From contig CAIOIC010000033.1 in assembly GCA_903858275.1 (NCBI GenBank), forward strand, positions 3,994 through 67,993: a stretch of 64,000 nucleotides of DNA, written 5' to 3'. Both the position numbers and the translations under genes were made by a program. Shown here in pieces: positions 872-61,051 of the stretch. The stretch's first letter is position 1, and each line of letters starts with the position of its first letter. This stretch comes from an uncultured Verrucomicrobia subdivision 3 bacterium (GTDB taxonomy: Bacteria; Verrucomicrobiota; Verrucomicrobiia; Limisphaerales; UBA11358). The notes beneath the pieces were generated by a model. The model saw only the letters and a list, made by a program, of their open reading frames with translations, searched no databases and had not been told where the DNA came from.

Positions 872-3643
872 TCAGGGCTGAATCTCCAGACGCACCGGCC
901 CCAGCAAACCGGAACGCATCAGCGGGTCTTCAGAGGCATAGCCTTGGAAGGGCTTAATTGTGCGTTTGCCGGATTGGAGGGCAATGTTCGTTTTGGTGAT
1001 GCGCTTTTCATTTGGCTGGCCAGCATCACCAATGAGACGATTGGCCCAAGTATTGACCACGTCGATTTCGAGTTCGTTGCGGCCCGCTTTGGTTGCGCCC
1101 ATCAAATCGACGCTCCACGGATCGGTCCACACAATGCCGAGGTCTTTGCCGTTCAACCACACTTGGGCGATAAATTTAACTTCGCCAAGGTGCAAGCGAA
1201 TGGAGCGTTTGGCTTCATCAGCCGACAGGTCAAAGGCTTTCCGGTAGGTCGCCTTGCCGGAGAAGAACTTGATGTCGTCGTTCGGATTTTCATTCCAGGC
1301 CGCAAGCTGCTCGAACACCGCTGACTCGGGCGCGCCGCGACCGGACTGAAAACTCACCGTCCACGGGCCAGGTATGGCTTTCTCTTCCATTTTTGGCTGT
1401 TGTGAAGGCTGAACTTGCGGTGACTGGGCCGCCTTGCGGAAAAGGACAAATGTCGAACCATTTTCCGGCAAAGTGAGAGAAACGATGGTGCGCCCGTCAT
1501 TGCTCTGTCGCCAATTTGCGGCGGCGATAATCTTTCCACTCACGGCATCCCAAAGTTCCGGCTGTTTGCCGTTCACGCGGAAGGTACAATCCACCGCGCC
1601 CTGGCCAGCCACGAAGAAAATGTCCGCGTTGCCTTCGCGACGATGCGTGTAGTCACAGGGGCCTTCAAAATCCGGCAAAAGCCGCTTGGCTTTCAACGCT
1701 TCTTCCAAAGTTGGTGATTTGCCCCACAAATCGGCCGCCAACCGCCGCACTTCTTCATCGCATGCGGGAAAATTCGCTAGGCTTGGCGAATAGTTGGGCT
1801 TGCGCTGACCAAAGACAATCGTTGCTCCAGCTTTCCTCAGATCGGCAATTTTTTTCAGCACGCCAGGGAGCACCGTTTCATCATCCAAGTCCACGACGAG
1901 GATGCGGTAACTCATGCCGTCGGGCAGCACAAGTTCGCCTTTCTTCACCGTCAAGCGGTCGAGCAATACTTCGGTCGTGAGTAGGTCGTAGGTGTAGCCC
2001 TTGGGCAAATTCACCGTGGCTTTCTCGCTCCAGTTGGTGTAACGGCCCCAATGCACATACGGTTTATCGCCAATGTAAGTGCAAACGTCGCCCACGAAAC
2101 GCCCTTGGCGCAGCATGAACTGGCAACGTGCAAGATAGTCAATGAACGGGCCGACCTGCGGGAACCACGTCACGTTCGGATTGATGTGCGTGCCGGCGAA
2201 ATACTCGCTGCCCGGCAGGCCAAACTCCGGCGGAGAACAAGTGAACGTGTGCCAGACGAATTGATTCACGCCATCGCAGAACGCGGAATCAGCGAAAGGC
2301 TTCAGCGCGGCCGGATATGCCGACCAATGCTGGACCATATGCGTGAACGCCTCCGTGGCCGCAAGACGCTGGCCGTAAATGTGCGCGGTCATGGCTTGCG
2401 GACGATTCATCTCCTGGCGGCGCTTGATCGGATAGCCGGTGAACCAGAACTCCCCTTGCGGCATGTCGTTCTGGCCGAGAAACGCAAGTTGATCCGCCTC
2501 GGCAAACGCGGCGAGTTTGCGATTCCATGGCCCGCCGGATTCGGAATGCCACTCCAAACCGGCACGGTGGCAAAGCCGCCGCAATGTGCCGTAGAAATTA
2601 TCGCGGAAACAGTCGCCGAGCGTCTTGTAGTAATCGCGCTGGAACCGCTCCGAATCGGCGGTTTGCTTCACGGTGAAACCCGCCAGCACAGGCAGCCACG
2701 CCTGCACCGGATAGCCGCGCCGCTTCGCAAACTCCCGCTCGAGCCCGCGCGTCCATGTCGGTATTGCCCCCTCCCAACTGACGCTGTAGAAATGGGTCAG
2801 CGTTTTGCCCGCCAGCGGTCCGGCGTCTTGCAGCAAGGTCTTGCCCATGCGCTCAAAGTGGCGCTCTACGGCGGCCGAATCGAGCACATCCACGTCATTC
2901 TTCGTGACGAGTTGGCCGGCATGGGCGGGATCGCCTTCCATGGTCATGCAGCCAAATCGCAGCAACGTCCAGCGGCCCGGCGGCACATCAACCGTCAACC
3001 GTCCTTGCTTGTCCACCTTCGGAGTGAAATCAACAACCTCGGTAACAACCGGCTGGGAACCTAGTTTTGGCACCACCTCCTGCCATTGGCTGGACAGTTC
3101 CACCGCCGCGCCGTCATGTCGCACACCAATCACCGCCACGTCCCAGAAATGTTTTCCCTCGGGTTTTGTCAGCTCGATGCTGAACTTCGGACCGCGCATT
3201 TCCGTCGCCGTCCAGACAAGTTTCTTTGGTATGTCTTCGCCAACTTCCCACGGCCCCATCAACGCGCCGGCGCAGCGGCTCAGGTTCACGCTCATCTTCA
3301 AGCCCAGCCGATTCGCTTCCTGCATGGAATGCTTCAGCAGCCGGCGCCATTCGGGACTCATGAAGTCCATCTTGCTTGGCGGCATCACGACATGATTTTG
3401 GTCGTCATGATAACCGCGGGCATCAAACATCAGCAAACCGCCGATGCCTTGTTGCTTCATCGCTTCGAGATCGCGCGTGATGGTGCGCTCATCCACGTTG
3501 CCGTTGAGCCACCACCAATAGACCCACGGCCTGTCTGAACCGGGCACGCTGCGGAAGTTTTGCTCCCAGCTGGTTTCGGCAGCAGGCAGCCAAGCGGCAA
3601 ATGTCAGAGCAATGCCGATAACGAGTAGGTTGTAATATTTCAT
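872..3643 (-). CDS. Glycoside hydrolase, GH106-like (alpha-L-rhamnosidase-type) with C-terminal jelly-roll domain
   Basis: ORF track 872..3658 begins at TTG; the ATG at 3643 gives MKYYNLLVIGIALTFAAW (signal-like). N-terminal 'RPWVYWWWLNGNVDERTITRDLEAMKQQGIGGLLMFD' is the pattern I associate with Glyco_hydro_106. The C-terminal 'VWLNGKDLG...VVNTWANRLIGD' is sugar-binding-like. Confidence 0.65.
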   Translation of the reverse strand: MKYYNLLVIGIALTFAAWLPAAETSWEQNFRSVPGSDRPWVYWWWLNGNVDERTITRDLEAMKQQGIGGLLMFDARGYHDDQNHVVMPPSKMDFMSPEWRRLLKHSMQEANRLGLKMSVNLSRCAGALMGPWEVGEDIPKKLVWTATEMRGPKFSIELTKPEGKHFWDVAVIGVRHDGAAVELSSQWQEVVPKLGSQPVVTEVVDFTPKVDKQGRLTVDVPPGRWTLLRFGCMTMEGDPAHAGQLVTKNDVDVLDSAAVERHFERMGKTLLQDAGPLAGKTLTHFYSVSWEGAIPTWTRGLEREFAKRRGYPVQAWLPVLAGFTVKQTADSERFQRDYYKTLGDCFRDNFYGTLRRLCHRAGLEWHSESGGPWNRKLAAFAEADQLAFLGQNDMPQGEFWFTGYPIKRRQEMNRPQAMTAHIYGQRLAATEAFTHMVQHWSAYPAALKPFADSAFCDGVNQFVWHTFTCSPPEFGLPGSEYFAGTHINPNVTWFPQVGPFIDYLARCQFMLRQGRFVGDVCTYIGDKPYVHWGRYTNWSEKATVNLPKGYTYDLLTTEVLLDRLTVKKGELVLPDGMSYRILVVDLDDETVLPGVLKKIADLRKAGATIVFGQRKPNYSPSLANFPACDEEVRRLAADLWGKSPTLEEALKAKRLLPDFEGPCDYTHRREGNADIFFVAGQGAVDCTFRVNGKQPELWDAVSGKIIAAANWRQSNDGRTIVSLTLPENGSTFVLFRKAAQSPQVQPSQQPKMEEKAIPGPWTVSFQSGRGAPESAVFEQLAAWNENPNDDIKFFSGKATYRKAFDLSADEAKRSIRLHLGEVKFIAQVWLNGKDLGIVWTDPWSVDLMGATKAGRNELEIDVVNTWANRLIGDAGQPNEKRITKTNIALQSGKRTIKPFQGYASEDPLMRSGLLGPVRLEIQP

Positions 3644-6478: not shown

Positions 6479-7741
6479 TCAGTTGCGAAGTTTCACGTCA
6501 TTGGCGTTCGCTCCACAGGATTTGACGGTCAGCAACAGAACGCCAAAAGCCAGCGGATACATGAATCCAGAAACCAGCCACACCGGACCATACGAGAAAT
6601 GATCCACCACCCAACCGATTGAGGTGTTTGCCAAGATACCGCCCAGCGCGCCAATAGCGCCGGTAAAACCAGTCACGGTGCCGATGGCATTTTGCGGAAA
6701 ACGTTCGCTGATGAGGGTGATGTAATTGGTGACCCAGAATCCATGCGCCAGCATCAACAACGCCATCATTGCCAGCGCTGCCGTGACACTGGCAACTTGA
6801 CCGGTAAGACTCGATGCCATCGTCAGCACCGCCGCGCCAGCCATGATCCAACGCCGCGCCGCAAGAGCGCCAAATCCCTTCCGCACCAAATGGTCTGAAA
6901 GCCATCCGCCAAAAACATTTGAGAGCCCAAGCGCTAAAAACGGAATCCAGCTTAATTCTCCGATTTCCTGCTGTGATGCCCCGCGTTCTTGACTCAGGTA
7001 TTTTGGAATCCAAAACATGTAAAAGTAGAATACCGGATCAACAATGAGACGAACCGTCGCCAATCCCCAGAAGTCCAAGCGTGTATATAATAGTGATAAC
7101 TTTGCTGGCCCGCTGTGATTGGAGGGAACTGTGGATGTTGATTTAGGTTTTGAAAGTATTGCGGATGAAAACCACCACGCAATCACCCATGCAACGCCTA
7201 GCAGTCCGGTCATCAGAAAAACACTGCGCCAACCTAATAATTGCGAAACCCAAACCGTCAAGGGTGGCGCCAAAACTGCGCCCAGGCTCGCGCCGCCAAT
7301 TGCCAATCCCATTGCCAATGCACGTTCTTGCCGGGGAAACCATTCAGTCACACCTTTGGCCGCACCCGGGAAACACCCGCCTTCGCCTGCTCCTAGCAGA
7401 AATCGCGCAATTCCAAGCTGCATCGCATTTTGAACCAGCGAATGAGCGGCACTGGCCAGCGACCACAAGCCGACACATAGCATCATCCCGAAGCGCGTGC
7501 CCAGCACGTCCAGCATCCGCCCGCTAAGCAGGAACATGACGGCATAACTAATCAAGAAAGCATTGGTTGCGTGCGAATATTCGAGGTTACTCATTCCCAA
7601 TTGCCGGGTAACCACCGGGGCGAGCACGGATAAAACCTGACGGTCAAGGAAACTGAGCGCCGTCGCGGCAAAAAGCAGGCCGCAGAGCCACCAGCGGATA
7701 TTCCCAGCGAAAACCGGTTTAGCCGGAGTGGACAGGTTCAT
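6479..7741 (-). CDS. MFS transporter (hexuronate/sugar-acid transporter-like)
   Basis: 420-aa ORF with about 12 hydrophobic segments and an 'LDRQVLSVLAP' MFS-type N-terminal motif. First gene of the minus-strand run MFS-isomerase-GH5-GH106. Confidence 0.85.
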   Translation of the reverse strand: MNLSTPAKPVFAGNIRWWLCGLLFAATALSFLDRQVLSVLAPVVTRQLGMSNLEYSHATNAFLISYAVMFLLSGRMLDVLGTRFGMMLCVGLWSLASAAHSLVQNAMQLGIARFLLGAGEGGCFPGAAKGVTEWFPRQERALAMGLAIGGASLGAVLAPPLTVWVSQLLGWRSVFLMTGLLGVAWVIAWWFSSAILSKPKSTSTVPSNHSGPAKLSLLYTRLDFWGLATVRLIVDPVFYFYMFWIPKYLSQERGASQQEIGELSWIPFLALGLSNVFGGWLSDHLVRKGFGALAARRWIMAGAAVLTMASSLTGQVASVTAALAMMALLMLAHGFWVTNYITLISERFPQNAIGTVTGFTGAIGALGGILANTSIGWVVDHFSYGPVWLVSGFMYPLAFGVLLLTVKSCGANANDVKLRN

Positions 7742-7845
7742 ACCAGTCCGTTTATATTATAAGAACATGATGTCATATCTGGCCTGTTCGATGTGAATAT
7801 GTTTACTGAATCTCTTTTTATGTCAAAGGAAATGTGCTTGACCAT

Positions 7846-7866
7846 ATGTTCTGAATATATGAACAT
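7846..7866. promoter_or_regulatory. Dyad-symmetric candidate operator (ATGTTC-N9-GAACAT) in the MFS/IclR divergent intergenic region
   Basis: The sequence ATGTTCTGAATATATGAACAT is seen directly. Additional GAACAT/ATGTTT half-site-like copies at 7763-7768 and 7799-7804. Lies between divergent starts at 7741 (-) and 7929 (+). Confidence 0.35.
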
Positions 7867-7928
7867 TGTGGCAGTCGGCAGCGCGGCGCAAGAGGTGATT
7901 AAGTGACCGCTCGCCGAAAAAAAACAAC

Positions 7929-8702
7929 ATGCAACGCGCCGCAACATTGGACAAAGGGCTGGATATTCTTGAAACCATCGCGGCAGCCCGCGAGCAGCGG
8001 CTGGGAATTCGGGAGCTGGCGCGCCAGCTGAAGATTAATTCCACCACGGTTCACAATTTAGTCTGGACCTTGTGCGCCCGTGGATATTTGCGACAGGATG
8101 AATCGACCCGGCGCTTTGAATTGGGGCCAGCCGGCCTGCAATTGGCAAGCCGATCCATACCCTGGCACGAACTGGCGCAGGCTGCGGAGCCATTGATTCG
8201 CCAATGCCAGCACGATCTTGACGAATCCGTAATGCTCGCGGCTTTGCATGGCACGGAAATTCTTCGCTTGGTCTATATCCCCTCCTCGCAGGCGCTCCGA
8301 GTCCACGAGCCGGATGTCATGGTGGAGCGCGCTTATGGAACAGCGGTGGGGAAGATGCTGCTGAGCACACTTGGAGAAGCCGAACTGGACGCCTACCTGT
8401 CGGCGTATCCGCCCCATGCCTTCACTTCTAAAACGCTTACCAACGCACCGGCGATTCGTGCCGCACTCGCGAAGATTCGCCGGCAGGGCTCTGCGGAAAC
8501 TCACGACGAATTGACAACCGGGGTTAGTGCCGCCGCGGTATTGGTCGAGGCCGGCCCCGGAATCCGTTTTGCCACCGGCTTGGGCGCCAGCGCGCCCACC
8601 ATCCGCTTTGGACCCCGTTTGGCGACCAAAACACGCAAAACTCTTCACCACTATGCCGGTCTAATCCGCGCCGCCTGGGCGGGGGTTGGCACGGTTTGCT
8701 AA
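7929..8702 (+). CDS. IclR-family transcriptional regulator
   Basis: 257-aa ORF. N-terminal wHTH 'LDKGLDILETIAAAREQRLGIRELARQLKINSTTVHNLVWTL' and a C-terminal effector-domain-sized region. Divergent from the sugar operon. Confidence 0.85.
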   Translation: MQRAATLDKGLDILETIAAAREQRLGIRELARQLKINSTTVHNLVWTLCARGYLRQDESTRRFELGPAGLQLASRSIPWHELAQAAEPLIRQCQHDLDESVMLAALHGTEILRLVYIPSSQALRVHEPDVMVERAYGTAVGKMLLSTLGEAELDAYLSAYPPHAFTSKTLTNAPAIRAALAKIRRQGSAETHDELTTGVSAAAVLVEAGPGIRFATGLGASAPTIRFGPRLATKTRKTLHHYAGLIRAAWAGVGTVC

Positions 8703-8757
8703 TCCCACAATTCTTCCATTCTGGACATTTGAAATTCGCAGCCACACCTTTGAGTTT

Positions 8758-9984
8758 ATGAACACACTGGGAAAACAAAATCTGACACCGAAGATAATAC
8801 CTCCCGCTTTCCTGTGCTTTTGTGTCGCATATCTGATGCTGCATTTCGGAAGCCCGGCGTGCGCCCAAGAAGGTTCTGTTCTTCCCCCGGAGGTGATCCA
8901 GCGCAGCCTGGTTAAGCTCGGCGATACGACCCGCCTGCAACAAGCCATGGCCAAAGCACGTCGGGGAGAGAAAGTGACCATCGCCTTCATCGGCGGCTCT
9001 ATCACCGAAGGCGCCAAAGCCACGCTCAAAGAGCGGCGCTATGTTGAACTCGTCGGCGGCTGGTGGCGAAAGACTTTCCCGAAGGCGCAAATCGAGGTGG
9101 TCAACGCCGGGATTGGCGCAACCGGTTCAAGCTTCGGAGCACTGCGGGTCCAGCGCGATGTGCTTTCCAAAAATCCCGATGTTCTCGTCGTGGAATTCGC
9201 AGTCAATGACTCCAATTCTGAAGCCAATGCGCAGACTTATGAAGGTCTGATTCGCCACGCACTCAATAGCCCTAAATCTCCGGCAGTGTTGTTGTTGTTC
9301 ATGCTGCACCAGGACGGCAGCAACGCGCAAGAATGGTTCACTAAAGTCGGGGCTCATTATAAACTGTCGATGGTCAGTTATCGCGATGCAATTTTTCCTG
9401 AGATTCAAGCTGGAAAAGTGAAGTGGGACGATATCAGCCCCGATACCGTTCATCCGAACGACATCGGCCACAATTACACCGCGCAGATCATTGACTCACT
9501 CTTGGCAAAGGTTTTCGCAACGCTGCCGGAAGGCGGCGTACCGATTGGGGCCGAGCCAGTGCCCGCCCCACTGCTTACCGATAGGTTCGAGCACACCTCA
9601 CTCTTCACTGGAGCAAATATGAAGCCGACCGTGAATCAGGGTTGGGTGTTTGAATCTCCCCAGAATATTAAAGCTGCCGGCTGGAAAGCCACACAACCCG
9701 GGAGTATTCTTGAATTCGAGTTGCCGGGATCAGTGATTTTCCTCCAGTGCTGGAAAATCAACGGTCCGATGGGAAAGGTGCGGGTAACCGTTGATAATGC
9801 TGCGCCAACCGACATTGATGCGTGGTTTGAGCTGACTTGGGGAGGCTACAATCTGACCAAGGTCATCGGCGAAAACCTAGCACCCGGCAAGCACCGGGTT
9901 CGCATCGAATTACTCAAAGAGAAAAACTCCAAGAGCGCCGGTCATGAATTCCGCGTCACCGGCCTCGGCTCCGCCGGGCTGTGA
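8758..9984 (+). CDS. Secreted SGNH/GDSL hydrolase with C-terminal beta-sandwich-like domain
   Basis: ORF track 8686..9984; ATG at 8758 (MNTLGKQ...). Block I 'IAFIGGSITEG', block III 'VVEFAVNDS', block V 'DTVHPND'. Confidence 0.8.
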   Translation: MNTLGKQNLTPKIIPPAFLCFCVAYLMLHFGSPACAQEGSVLPPEVIQRSLVKLGDTTRLQQAMAKARRGEKVTIAFIGGSITEGAKATLKERRYVELVGGWWRKTFPKAQIEVVNAGIGATGSSFGALRVQRDVLSKNPDVLVVEFAVNDSNSEANAQTYEGLIRHALNSPKSPAVLLLFMLHQDGSNAQEWFTKVGAHYKLSMVSYRDAIFPEIQAGKVKWDDISPDTVHPNDIGHNYTAQIIDSLLAKVFATLPEGGVPIGAEPVPAPLLTDRFEHTSLFTGANMKPTVNQGWVFESPQNIKAAGWKATQPGSILEFELPGSVIFLQCWKINGPMGKVRVTVDNAAPTDIDAWFELTWGGYNLTKVIGENLAPGKHRVRIELLKEKNSKSAGHEFRVTGLGSAGL

Positions 9985-58412: not shown

Positions 58413-59651
58413 TTATTTGGCGTCGGCGCCGAACACCCGTTTAACCGCCTCCAAATAGCCGTAGCCATACTTGGTGTCCGGCTCCAGATAGCTGGTCTCC
58501 GTCCATTCATTCCAACTGTTGATGGTGATCAGCGGCGTTTGATTCGGGCGGGCATCCACAAAGGCTTTGGCCTGGCGCAACGCCTGTTCGAAGTTCGCGG
58601 GTGGATTATTCCTGGTGATCGAACCTTTGAAATTGAACGTCCTCGGACTGCTGTCCCAGCCGACGGAAACATGCGGATAATAGCGCGCGGTGTAATTTGA
58701 CGAAACCATCCCCCATTCCCGCACAGCATCTTTCACAATTTCATTGTATTCCCGGTTCACGTCGGTCATGTGGACAAATTGATAGTGCGTAAGCGAGTCA
58801 AACCCGAGTTGATCGACCATCTCTTTCTGCGTGCCGATGCCGTCGCCCGCCACGGCGGACAGGCTTTTATTGTTATCGCGGCGCAGGGAGAGTTGCAGTT
58901 CCAAGCCCGGAAATCCCGCCTTGACCACCTCTGCGCGAAACCACGCGATGGCGTCCTTCGCCTGAGCCGCGCCGCCCAACCCTTGGATGAACTTGCTCAA
59001 ATCATAGAGCATGAACACCGGCTTGCCGTCGATTTTGTAATAAGTCGGCTGGGAAAAATATTTTTCGATCCACCGGTGCGCGATTTTCTCGAACTCCGCC
59101 CGCTCGACCGAACCTTTCCAGATGAGCGCCTTGTTCTTTTGGGCGAAAGCGTCATCCGCATTGCGCTTGTCCCAGTTAAGCCCCACATCGTGATTGGCCC
59201 ACATCAGGTAGAATTTCATCCGGCGGTTGTTGCCCGCCTTCAAAAAACCGTCGTTCAAGCACGCTTCCAGAAACGGCATCCGGTCATACCAATACCAGTC
59301 GTAGATGAACACATTCACGCCATGGTCGGCGGCCGCGGCGATCTGCATCTCCATGACATAACGGTCCGACTCGTTGACGTAACCCCACAACGGAATGCGC
59401 GGCTGATCGTGACCCTCGAACTTGGGCTGGTTATGCATCACCGTTTCCCATTCACCGATGCCCATCGGCCAGAAAATTCTCGCCCGGTCGTCTGGGTGAT
59501 AGGATGGCCATACAAACGCGGCGATATCGTAATGCCTGGGTTTATCCAGCACCGGCGAACCGGCGGCTGGCTGCGCCGAAACCAGATTTGCCACCGTTAG
59601 CAATCCAGATAAAACGGCGGCAAACAATATCTGCGGTTTTGGATTTTTCAT
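58413..59651 (-). CDS. Secreted GH99-like / WbsX-family glycoside hydrolase-like protein
   Basis: Signal-like N-terminus. 'DIAAFVWPSYHPDDRARIFWPMGIGEWETV...PLWGYVNESD...VNVFIYDWYWYD' matches the WbsX/GH99-like pattern from memory. Confidence 0.65.
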   Translation of the reverse strand: MKNPKPQILFAAVLSGLLTVANLVSAQPAAGSPVLDKPRHYDIAAFVWPSYHPDDRARIFWPMGIGEWETVMHNQPKFEGHDQPRIPLWGYVNESDRYVMEMQIAAAADHGVNVFIYDWYWYDRMPFLEACLNDGFLKAGNNRRMKFYLMWANHDVGLNWDKRNADDAFAQKNKALIWKGSVERAEFEKIAHRWIEKYFSQPTYYKIDGKPVFMLYDLSKFIQGLGGAAQAKDAIAWFRAEVVKAGFPGLELQLSLRRDNNKSLSAVAGDGIGTQKEMVDQLGFDSLTHYQFVHMTDVNREYNEIVKDAVREWGMVSSNYTARYYPHVSVGWDSSPRTFNFKGSITRNNPPANFEQALRQAKAFVDARPNQTPLITINSWNEWTETSYLEPDTKYGYGYLEAVKRVFGADAK

Positions 59652-59784
59652 AAAAGGGTCTGCCTATTCTGGTTCTTCAACGGACACAGGGCAAAGCTAA
59701 ATGCGAATGGTATTTGGTTTTCAATATCCCGGAAATGGCGGACGGGGGACGGAGGCGTTTTAATTGTTAAAACCGGAGAAAATC

Positions 59785-60021
59785 GTGGCGCTATTTTCAA
59801 AATAGCGCTACGGGAAGAAAGAATCCTGACTAGGAAACGAACATTTCTGATGAGCGGACGAAGATTTTCTGGAGCTATTTCTGAAATAGCTCCACGGAAA
59901 ATGATTTTTTCAGTCAGCGGACAAACAAATCGTGGCGCTATTTTGGAAATAGCACCAAGAAAAATGATTTCACTGACTAGGAAAACCACAATCCTTGGCG
60001 CTAATTTGAAAATAGCGCCAC
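59785..60021. repeat. Tandem array of four 27-nt palindromic (hairpin) units, spacing 84/63/63 nt
   Basis: The units are at 59785-59811, 59869-59895, 59932-59958 and 59995-60021 (GGCGCTATTT-nn-AAATAGCGCC core). The inter-unit segments are also related to each other. Confidence 0.85.
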
Positions 60022-60297
60022 GAAAAACTCATCCGCCAATGACATTTTCTTGGGGAATTGATGGAAAAGCAGGGTTTTTGACGGTTTCAGCTCGTTTCCT
60101 CGTCATCCGGGGAACAATCCCGGTCATGGATCAAGCGGATATGACAGGGAAATCTCAAACCACCGATGCAGAACCGGGAAAGCAGATATGAAACCTTGGG
60201 CTGAATGAGTGGAATCCTGTTGGTATTCACGGAACATGACCTTTAGAAAACGGAGCGAGGATATACGAATTAACAAACGAATTGAAAATGGCTATTG

Positions 60298-61026
60298 TCA
60301 CTTAAGCGACTGAACTTCCGCGCGATTATAAATAGCATTCGTGTAATGGGGATTTATTTCAATTGCCTTCGAGTAATCAGCCATAGCATCGTCATAATAT
60401 TTTAGACCACGTTTCGCTGTGCCACGATTATTGTATGCTTCAGCATAATGAGGGTTTACTTCAATGGCCTTATTACAGTCAAAAATAGCGCCGTTAAAAT
60501 CGTTGATATTGTTTTTTGCAGCGGCTCGACTGTTGTAAGCTTTGTCATATCGAGGGTTGATTTCGATGGCTTTGTCAAAATCCGCGATGGCTCTGGTGTA
60601 ATTATTTAACCGATACTTTGTATTACCACGATTCAAATAGGCTGCCGAATCGTGTGGATTAAGTTCAACAGCTCTGTCGTAATCTAAAACGGCTTTAGCA
60701 AAATCCTGAAGATGCGCTTCAGCATTTCCCCGATTGTAATAACCAAATTGATATTGTGGATTCAGTTTAATGGCTTTGGTGTAGTCAGCGATAGCTCCGT
60801 CCTCATCTTTGATAGCGTCTTTAGCCATGCCGCGATTGTTGTATGCCTTGATGTAATTCGGATCGATTAGGATGGCCTTATCATATTCGGCTATGGCACC
60901 GACGAAGTCACCAGAAGCATATTTGTTACAGCCTGCGTTAAAGAATTTCTTGGCGGATGGTTTTGAACATGAAGAGCAAGCAGCGACCAATAAAATCAGA
61001 ATGAATTTATTTAGCGAAGCCTTCAT
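60298..61026 (-). CDS. TPR-repeat lipoprotein, A+T-rich gene
   Basis: ORF track 60298..61044; ATG at 61026 gives MKASLNKFILILLVAAC (lipobox-like). It is followed by about six tandem 34-aa TPR units ('AIADYTKAIKLNPQY...'). Confidence 0.8.
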   Translation of the reverse strand: MKASLNKFILILLVAACSSCSKPSAKKFFNAGCNKYASGDFVGAIAEYDKAILIDPNYIKAYNNRGMAKDAIKDEDGAIADYTKAIKLNPQYQFGYYNRGNAEAHLQDFAKAVLDYDRAVELNPHDSAAYLNRGNTKYRLNNYTRAIADFDKAIEINPRYDKAYNSRAAAKNNINDFNGAIFDCNKAIEVNPHYAEAYNNRGTAKRGLKYYDDAMADYSKAIEINPHYTNAIYNRAEVQSLK

Positions 61027-61051
61027 GCAACCTGAAAATCCCACATTGTTC

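Follow-up and report, generated by a model that had tools for sequence, protein, structure and literature searches.

An array of four palindromes in the genome of an uncultured Verrucomicrobia subdivision 3 bacterium may be a set of helically phased DNA sites for a dimeric protein, placed on bent DNA and controlling the gene downstream of it in the manner of an operator or a centromere. Judged from its sequence features, we give this reading about an even chance. The array lies in a 64,000-nt stretch of contig CAIOIC010000033.1 (positions 3,994 to 67,993; hereafter the window), where two minus-strand genes leave a gap of 646 nt. The palindromes are 27 nt long and stand at 59785-59811, 59869-59895, 59932-59958 and 59995-60021, with start-to-start distances of 84, 63 and 63 nt; the initial annotation of the window had these positions and distances exactly right. 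Its description of related linkers and of an A+T-rich intergenic setting between a TPR gene and a GH99-like gene also holds, as a repeat search recovered a four-copy palindrome family (D1) together with related linkers (D3, D5 and D6), and the local G+C content is 42-50% compared with ~56% across the window. Tandem Repeats Finder misses the array because its units are too divergent. With up to three mismatches allowed, these four are the only copies of the palindrome in the 64 kb, and shuffled sequences lead one to expect none. But in which molecule do the palindromes act, DNA or RNA? Are they dispersed repeats of a known kind? Is the array translated? And which protein would bind it?

The palindrome consensus is GTGGCGCTATTT-N3-AAATAGCGCCAC, with the core TGG-N-GCTA/TAGC-N-CCA inside GTGGCGCTATTT. 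The T-rich strand, which is the minus strand of the window, was taken as the functional orientation of the element. In this order the first unit (59995-60021) reads GTGGCGCTATTTTCAAATTAGCGCCAA on the minus strand and has a T.T mismatch at stem position 10; the second (59932-59958) reads TTGGTGCTATTTCCAAAATAGCGCCAC on the minus strand, has a G.T at position 5 and is flagged as terminator-like on that strand; the third (59869-59895; GTGGAGCTATTTCAGAAATAGCTCCAG) is doubly changed at position 5 and is the sole perfect 12-bp dyad in the window. The last unit (59785-59811), closest to the downstream gene, reads GTAGCGCTATTTTGAAAATAGCGCCAC on the minus strand, followed by GATTTTCTCC. Orthologous arrays are kept at syntenic positions, and the set compared here has five members: the window and the loci L021, L038, L041 and L044. 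The first unit is identical in four of the five, and the orthologues of the last unit are perfect matches to the consensus, with GTGG where the window copy reads GTAG. The array is part of a 375-nt non-coding module (59750-60124, minus) that is 92-95% identical to the four other loci, from related genomes of Verrucomicrobia subdivision 3, and free of indels across all five orthologues; the flanks are unalignable or contain different genes. Within the module, the part upstream of the first unit (60022-60124, minus) has 15 variable columns out of 105, and the last unit is followed by a conserved tail (59750-59784, minus; GATTTTCTCCGGTTTTAACAATTAAAACGCCTCCG). Between the module and the TPR gene, conservation is weaker: the stretch at 60125-60223 (minus; 82-88% identity) is found in L021, L038 and L044, also by blastn, but not in L041.

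Similar arrays are found at other loci. When each species was represented by one genome, a scan for GGNGCTATTTNNNAAATAGCNCC yielded 28 matches, and those in three Verrucomicrobiota metagenome-assembled genomes (MAGs) have the full 27-mer GTGGCGCTATTTYNRAAATAGCGCCAC in common; the remaining ones are AAGG...CCTT hairpins in unrelated taxa, probably due to chance. With an exact pattern, the sister MAG bin-1719 was found to have three loci and two other MAGs a pair each, and a scan of metagenomes added nine further loci. The spacing is 63/63/84 in family B (L013, L037, L040 and L045), 84/63/84 in family C (L039/L043), 84/63/63 in L047, 84/84 in L028 and 85/84 in L019, and L048 and L050 have five units each, all 63 nt apart. 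The number of units is almost always four or five and the exact 63/84 spacing occurs in independent families and clades, the single 85 of L019 excepted. The units are intergenic at every locus examined, and every four-unit array is co-directional with its downstream gene, which is one of six different genes. The gene preceding the array is sometimes divergent, so the array cannot be a 3' untranslated region. The palindrome has no match in viral contigs, its sequence retrieves only unrelated primers from the literature, and a keyword search returned only a general survey of repetitive extragenic palindromic (REP) sequences. The element belongs to no described family, and the module is a conserved non-coding feature of freshwater Verrucomicrobia that had not been described before.

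What is conserved in these units, the sequence of the arms or their pairing? Variable columns make up 7-12% of the stems, 13-43% of the linkers and 17-67% of the loops. Between families A and B identity is 91% in the stems, 49% in the linkers and 42% in the loops (the three central bases), and across 46 units there is next to no variation at stem positions 2-4 and 6-9. In L047 the inner stem is gone, and what remains reads GTGG[CA]GCTA-N9-TAGCGCCAC, that is, 9-N9-9. Arms that keep their sequence around a variable centre point to sequence-specific recognition with a free centre. Of the units, the one closest to the promoter matches the consensus best, which also favours a DNA site.

The spacing and the linkers bring in the DNA helix. 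Families A and B can be laid out in rows of 21 nt, with each palindrome filling two rows. The other rows start with a pseudo-palindrome, T-R-A-Y-Y-A, continue with TTTCC and have a T-run at the end, giving a lattice consensus T-R-A-Y-Y-A-TTTCC...GTTTTT with two T-tracts per 21 nt; the lattice runs about five rows past the palindromes on both sides. In the window, the 57-nt linker (59812-59868, minus; ...CTTCGTCCGCTCATCAGAAAT / GTTCGTTTCCTAGTCAGGATT...) contains two lattice units, and the two 36-nt linkers, at 59896-59931 (minus; its TGACTG motif inverted relative to that of its neighbours) and at 59959-59994 (minus; TAGTCAGTGAAATCATTTTTC), contain one each. The distances of 63 and 84 bp are multiples of 21, or two turns of B-DNA, and equal 6.0 and 8.0 turns at 10.5 bp per turn. 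With the palindromes masked, TT dinucleotides of the linkers and flanks recur with a sharp period of 10.5 nt in L013, L037, L040, L039 and L045 (z = 7-15), and with one of 21 nt in the window (z = 7.5). T-tracts in phase with the helical repeat are the classical mark of bent DNA, and we know of no reason for RNA to show a 10.5-nt period. A spacing kept to the base pair despite linkers at 49% identity, together with the phasing of the T-tracts, favours the DNA duplex, and a separation of six or eight turns across phased linkers would make all sites face one side of it.

The array could then be seen as a double-stranded DNA platform with four dyad-symmetric sites for a sequence-specific and probably dimeric protein. 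Each site would consist of two conserved arms around a freely variable A+T-rich centre, and the 63/84-bp spacing with 21-bp units whose T-tracts lie ~10.5 bp apart would set all of them on one face of an intrinsically bent duplex. Bound dimers may touch each other and wrap the DNA into a higher-order complex, which would control a co-directional downstream promoter. In the window this would be the promoter of the WbsX/GH99-like gene (58413-59651, minus), which is co-directional with the array, starts 133 nt past the last unit and is the candidate regulated gene in this genome. The initial annotation had proposed a structured RNA, an operator array or a centromere-like site; an operator or centromere-like role fits best, given the arms, the exact spacing and the T-tract phase, and its comparison with the F-plasmid sopC site holds as an analogy only.

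The multiples of 21 also bear on a quite different idea, namely that the array is translated. The initial annotation had observed that all spacings are multiples of 3 and that 113-aa open reading frames (ORFs) stay open on both strands. The ORFs are there (59648-59989 minus and 59850-60191 plus), and 63 and 84 are divisible by 3, as a by-product of being multiples of 21. A protein read through the array would have G-A-I-x-x-I-A-P every 21 or 28 residues (the palindrome in frame GGC GCT ATT encodes this peptide on both strands, and both changes in unit 2, discussed below, are third-position synonymous in it), four orthologues have a minus-strand frame of 146-164 codons from ATG or TTG, and there is a period-3 Fourier signal (z = 9.7). 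Such a repeat protein is nevertheless rejected as very improbable. The 44 variable columns among the five orthologues split 15:13:16 over the codon positions, without bias, and the 21-nt lattice accounts for the period-3 signal as one of its harmonics. At 60029-60031 (minus) the window copy has a TGA in frame where orthologues have CGA or GGA; L013, L037, L040, L039, L021 and L041 have one to five stops on either strand, in differing places; and the 85-nt spacing of L019 would break the frame. In addition, the codon choice is palindromic in every unit and Pfam gives no matches. Public annotations of L045 and L046 list genes of 60 and 61 aa within the arrays (L045:1805-1987 and 2180-2365); short ORFs called through the arrays are probably false genes arising from the stop-poor lattice. 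A period of 63 nt with 27-nt repeats and 36-nt 'spacers' might also recall a decayed array of clustered regularly interspaced short palindromic repeats (CRISPR), and both the repeat length and the period are within the CRISPR range. We regard this as next to impossible, as similarity among the repeats is only 73-83%, the 'spacers' resemble one another, are conserved among orthologues and are built on the common 21-nt unit, the four-unit layout recurs at paralogous loci, and no Cas family was found among the neighbouring proteins scanned.

A serious rival is an RNA leader or attenuator. The array would then be transcribed as a minus-strand leader or a non-coding RNA with four hairpins, serving as protein target, attenuators, terminators or stabilisers; in one variant the last hairpin and its U-tail would stop transcription ahead of the downstream gene. 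Either form is conceivable, though we lean against both. As single-stranded DNA, the individual units have folding energies of -8.5 to -10.6 kcal/mol (z = -3.7 to -7.2), and either strand of the whole region folds much more stably than shuffled sequence (z ~ -9), as a structured RNA would; strong folding is unavoidable for palindromes and says nothing on which molecule matters. What does the pattern of substitutions say? Across 54 distinct units, 88.7% of the cells are paired, and 26 cells are changed on both sides compared with 10.7 in column shuffles. These changes occur clade by clade, for example at position 6, where every unit of L048 and L050 has T-A in place of G-C, and they preserve pairing at positions 5 and 6, which agrees with a hairpin. 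Within clades, on the other hand, there is no covariation: the arms vary independently and are conserved as sequence, and mismatches are common at position 1 (19/54 units), position 5 (14/54) and position 10 (18/54), or 26-35%. The comparison of G.U with A.C mismatches (~2 events versus 3 among the units compared) does not identify a transcribed strand.

The double substitution of unit 2 (59869), GGAGC/GCTCC as opposed to GGCGC/GCGCC elsewhere in the window, had been taken by the initial annotation as compensatory and as what selection on a hairpin or a dimer site would produce. The substitution is real, but it is weak evidence. The ancestral unit 2 in the orthologues is a mismatch, GGCGC/GCTCC, and one further change, common to the window and L038, restored pairing. 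With a left-arm A in 10 and a right-arm T in 4 of 46 units, 0.87 doubly changed units are expected by chance; the two seen go back to the same single event, no more than chance predicts.

The position of the last unit brings further points for an RNA. In the direction of the gene, a terminator scan gave a pass for 59933-59957 in the window (minus; one of four units, the third in plus-strand order) and for the last unit of L037. The orientation relative to the downstream gene is fixed, and the start codon lies at a conserved distance from the last unit (178/178/178/179 nt within one group, 116/116 nt within a second). The terminator-like last unit with its U-rich tail is the reason why an RNA leader or attenuator stays a serious rival. 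Against it, the U-tail is missing in L047, L048 and L019, the complementarity of the linkers (CTGACTAG/CAGTCAG) is confined to family A, and the exact 63/84 spacing and the 10.5-nt T-tract phase have no obvious RNA rationale. The window has no Rfam match at the gathering threshold, and relaxing the search to E <=10 yields only chance-level matches to microRNAs and small nucleolar RNAs. Three small metatranscriptomes that share samples with the organism covered only conserved rpoD fragments of other taxa.

If the array is a set of DNA sites, what protein would bind them? Family B is always found upstream of a gene for a 207-aa protein with a C-terminal FN3 domain, and this FN3-family gene is the sole constant neighbour of the arrays. 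Relatives of the protein form 54 clusters, and contigs were fetched for members at 73%, 59%, 45% and 44% identity. In every lineage examined (99% to 44% amino-acid identity) an array lies 116-217 nt upstream of the start codon. The N-terminus follows the pattern M-x3-K-[LF]-x-F-R-N (referred to here as the KLxFRN motif), in which K5, F8, R9 and N10 are invariant. An AlphaFold2 (AF2) model of the monomer has residues 1-12 extended, helices at 13-30 and 37-92 (the latter 56 residues long) and the FN3 domain (predicted local distance difference test score 92.6). Taken together, the sequence and the extended N-terminus of the model are possibly ribbon-helix-helix-like, a fold in which an N-terminal beta-strand and two helices build a dimeric sheet that reads DNA. 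Residue 7 goes with the half-site: Asp occurs with TCTA, and Thr or Gly with GCTA. This match represents one evolutionary event or more, and simple co-descent would account for it too. We put forward the FN3-family protein as the most likely binder of the arrays, but only tentatively. Searches with it in the PDB, by sequence and by fold, returned FN3 domains only; profile and Pfam searches with its N-terminal 100 residues gave chance-level matches only; and a profile search with the family alignment was swamped by giant multi-FN3 proteins, being uninformative on the N-terminal domain.

The FN3-family protein is not encoded in the window; it is encoded in the sister MAG (L013). The window array is most likely a paralogue of an ancestral array tied to this orphan FN3-domain protein. 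The ancestral array would lie upstream of the FN3-family gene, whose product would regulate its own gene and act in trans on extra arrays, that of the window included.

Could the palindromes be REP sequences? REPs and bacterial interspersed mosaic elements (BIMEs) are extragenic palindromes of 20-40 nt, clustered, dispersed in tens to hundreds of copies per genome and able to form hairpins in RNA, with a GTAG or CGTC tag at one end (PMC3733652), and REPs are known in Verrucomicrobia (PMC3733652). The element described here shares the clustering, the dispersal and the capacity for RNA hairpins, and as an imperfect extragenic palindrome of 27 nt it is within the size range. A selfish or structural repeat of this type, spread by a transposase or by recombination, without a role tied to any locus and owing its conservation to recent spread or gene conversion, would explain why the palindrome occurs at several intergenic loci per genome beside unrelated housekeeping genes (clpB, gcvP, pfkA and rpoD), why clustered units have related linkers, why both flanking genes of the window module differ between close relatives, and why a serine recombinase gene adjoins one copy. 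We consider it improbable. The 64 kb contain one cluster only, a low copy density, and the units stand in direct register with exact helical spacing. Their ends read GTGG/CTGG/ATGG...CCAC, and GTGG takes the place of the GTAG/CGTC tag; GTAG occurs in 1 of 63 units (window 59785). Paralogous linkers have diverged to 49% and yet the arms and the exact spacing are kept, which argues for long-term selection and not for recent copying. Orthologous arrays are retained in synteny, the link to the FN3-family gene persists to 44% protein identity, and an element conserved across such deep divergence and tied to one gene is too stably placed for a REP. No gene for a RAYT (IS200/IS605-type) transposase, with which REPs are associated, was found at any locus examined, though RAYT genes need not be adjacent. 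The initial annotation had considered a REP-type element without positional preference; what is found is dispersed and, in the sequences scanned, low-copy, with a fixed orientation, always upstream of a co-directional gene.

Comparison with known nucleoprotein sites brings out both likeness and difference. The sites of R1 and pSK41 parC/ParR, parH/ParG and the omega type are plasmid partition centromeres that double as operators. They resemble the arrays in having sites in a fixed helical register just upstream of the gene for a small binding protein, and here the tandem units keep, as sequence architecture, a regular register of 63/84 bp on a 21-bp lattice. In such systems a dimeric protein wraps the DNA cooperatively and the site is also autoregulatory; by analogy, the same might be proposed for the arrays. 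These are, in contrast, 27-bp palindromes 63/84 bp apart and not head-to-tail iterons of 7-20 bp; they are chromosomal (beside rpoD and gltX), with several per genome; they have no ParA/ParM-type motor gene beside any copy; and the protein linked to them has an FN3 domain without a recognised DNA-binding fold. No ParA, ParB or Rep family member was found among the neighbours at any locus scanned, those in the window being WbsX, TPR, gltX and rpoD. In F-plasmid sopC, SopB binds 7-bp inverted repeats, one in each of 12 tandem 43-bp units. Tandem units with an inverted repeat in each are common to both, but unit length and sequence differ, the units here are not near-identical, and there is neither a sopAB-like operon nor a plasmid context. 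The iterons of the phage lambda origin, on which the O-some forms, are four dyad-symmetric 19-bp sites beside intrinsically bent DNA. Four dyad sites with phased A/T tracts suggest a similar wrapping of DNA on an oligomer of dimers, whereas the spacing here is three to four times larger, no replication genes are nearby, each genome has several loci, and neither GC skew nor gene orientation points clearly to an origin.

The cumulative GC skew declines throughout the window until it reverses at ~59-60 kb, where the array lies. A replication origin at this point is unsupported, as gene orientation does not switch at the skew minimum and there are several arrays per genome. The coincidence of minimum and array may be fortuitous, only 4 kb of the window following it.

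Several observations weigh against a phased array of protein-binding sites that controls the downstream gene. A scan in and beside the arrays with the sigma-70 consensus found no promoter on the gene's strand in the window, and none at all in L037, L045 and L047. The distant clades L047, L048, L050, L019 and L028 show no 10.5-nt phasing. A U-rich tail follows the last unit in the window and in the main clade of family B, where that unit scores as a terminator in the direction of the gene; this fits an RNA role. Clade-wise double changes of the G-C to T-A kind are equally expected of a hairpin, although a dimer site co-evolving with its protein would give the same pattern. The N-terminal domain of the candidate binder has no DNA-binding match in Pfam or the PDB, and the neighbouring genes do not form a coherent regulon.

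The genes around the module have changed more than the module itself. Over 6 kb, the window and L021, a contig of 'uncultured Verrucomicrobia subdivision 3 bacterium MJ-time_bin-1719', are 90% identical, which makes the window organism a close relative of that MAG; window sequence is also present in lake-water metagenomes. In the syntenic locus of L021 (86-2006) the WbsX/GH99-like gene is absent and a small glutaredoxin-like gene takes its place, and the TPR gene (60298-61044 in the window, minus) is replaced by an ORF of 306 aa without Pfam match. L038 and L041 have yet other genes downstream of the module. Since the flanking genes differ among orthologues, the module outlasts the turnover of its neighbours. 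WbsX did not serve as an anchor for orthologues, as its closest homologues (77-82% identity) are in unrelated contexts, and L001 and L002, contigs of the same strain, are identical over the intergenic region and hence uninformative. The genes gltX and rpoD also lie near the window array. By eye, a TTGAC hexamer can be seen 4-14 nt past the last unit in several clades.

Single palindromes and other repeats were noticed near some of the loci. Perfect single palindromes lie within 21-nt tandem arrays at L034:4790-5030, L029:3820-4060 and L033:1720-1950, where the units are quite different (TCTTGGGAAAC... and CCACATGGT...), so the 21-nt lattice seems more general than the linker sequence. In a different organism (L042:8962-9020, metagenome contig Ga0302307_10000023) a copy of the array palindrome, ATGGCGCTATTTTCTAAATAGCGCCAC, with two direct half-site copies stands directly upstream of a gene for a 458-aa Fic-domain protein (7579-8955, minus), an arrangement that, from its sequence, looks like an autoregulatory operator; by hhalign, the N-terminal domain of the candidate binder is unrelated to the N-terminus of this Fic protein. 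The recombinase gene mentioned above encodes a large serine recombinase (Pfam Resolvase and Recombinase; L043:1802-3292 in reverse-complement coordinates), and 244 nt separate its end from the family C array downstream. A second type of palindrome, AATAGCCCAGCC-N6-GGCTGGGCTATT, occurs near arrays at L041:655-678, L037 ~3125, L045 ~1835 and in L013, and is not found in the window. REP-like G+C-rich palindromes (CCTCTCCCC...GGGGAGAGG with GGTGAGGGG) occur near several arrays, at L028 ~2990-3110, L033 ~2140-2260 and L039:124-210.

What would phased DNA sites of this kind mean for the Verrucomicrobiota? In the widest form of the idea, which we offer as a speculation with rather long chances, the arrays and the protein with its KLxFRN motif, long helix and FN3 domain would be an undescribed chromosomal nucleoprotein system of this phylum. 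The protein would be a new type of DNA-binding protein that assembles on helically phased palindromes and wraps bent DNA into a defined complex, as a master regulatory switch or as a centromere-like site that organises the nucleoid; the arrays would occupy a handful of loci, and that of the window would be a target in trans. The module mimics a gene, with ORFs on both strands, a period-3 signal and ORFs picked up by gene callers, and so calls for caution in the annotation of MAGs. If phased sites are indeed what the array provides, a large and mostly uncultivated phylum with almost no known transcription-factor sites would have a DNA element of regulatory or architectural function, and one whose grammar of site, spacing, bend and orientation is unusually clear. 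The element would also give the first functional lead for an orphan family that pairs FN3 with an unclassified N-terminal domain.

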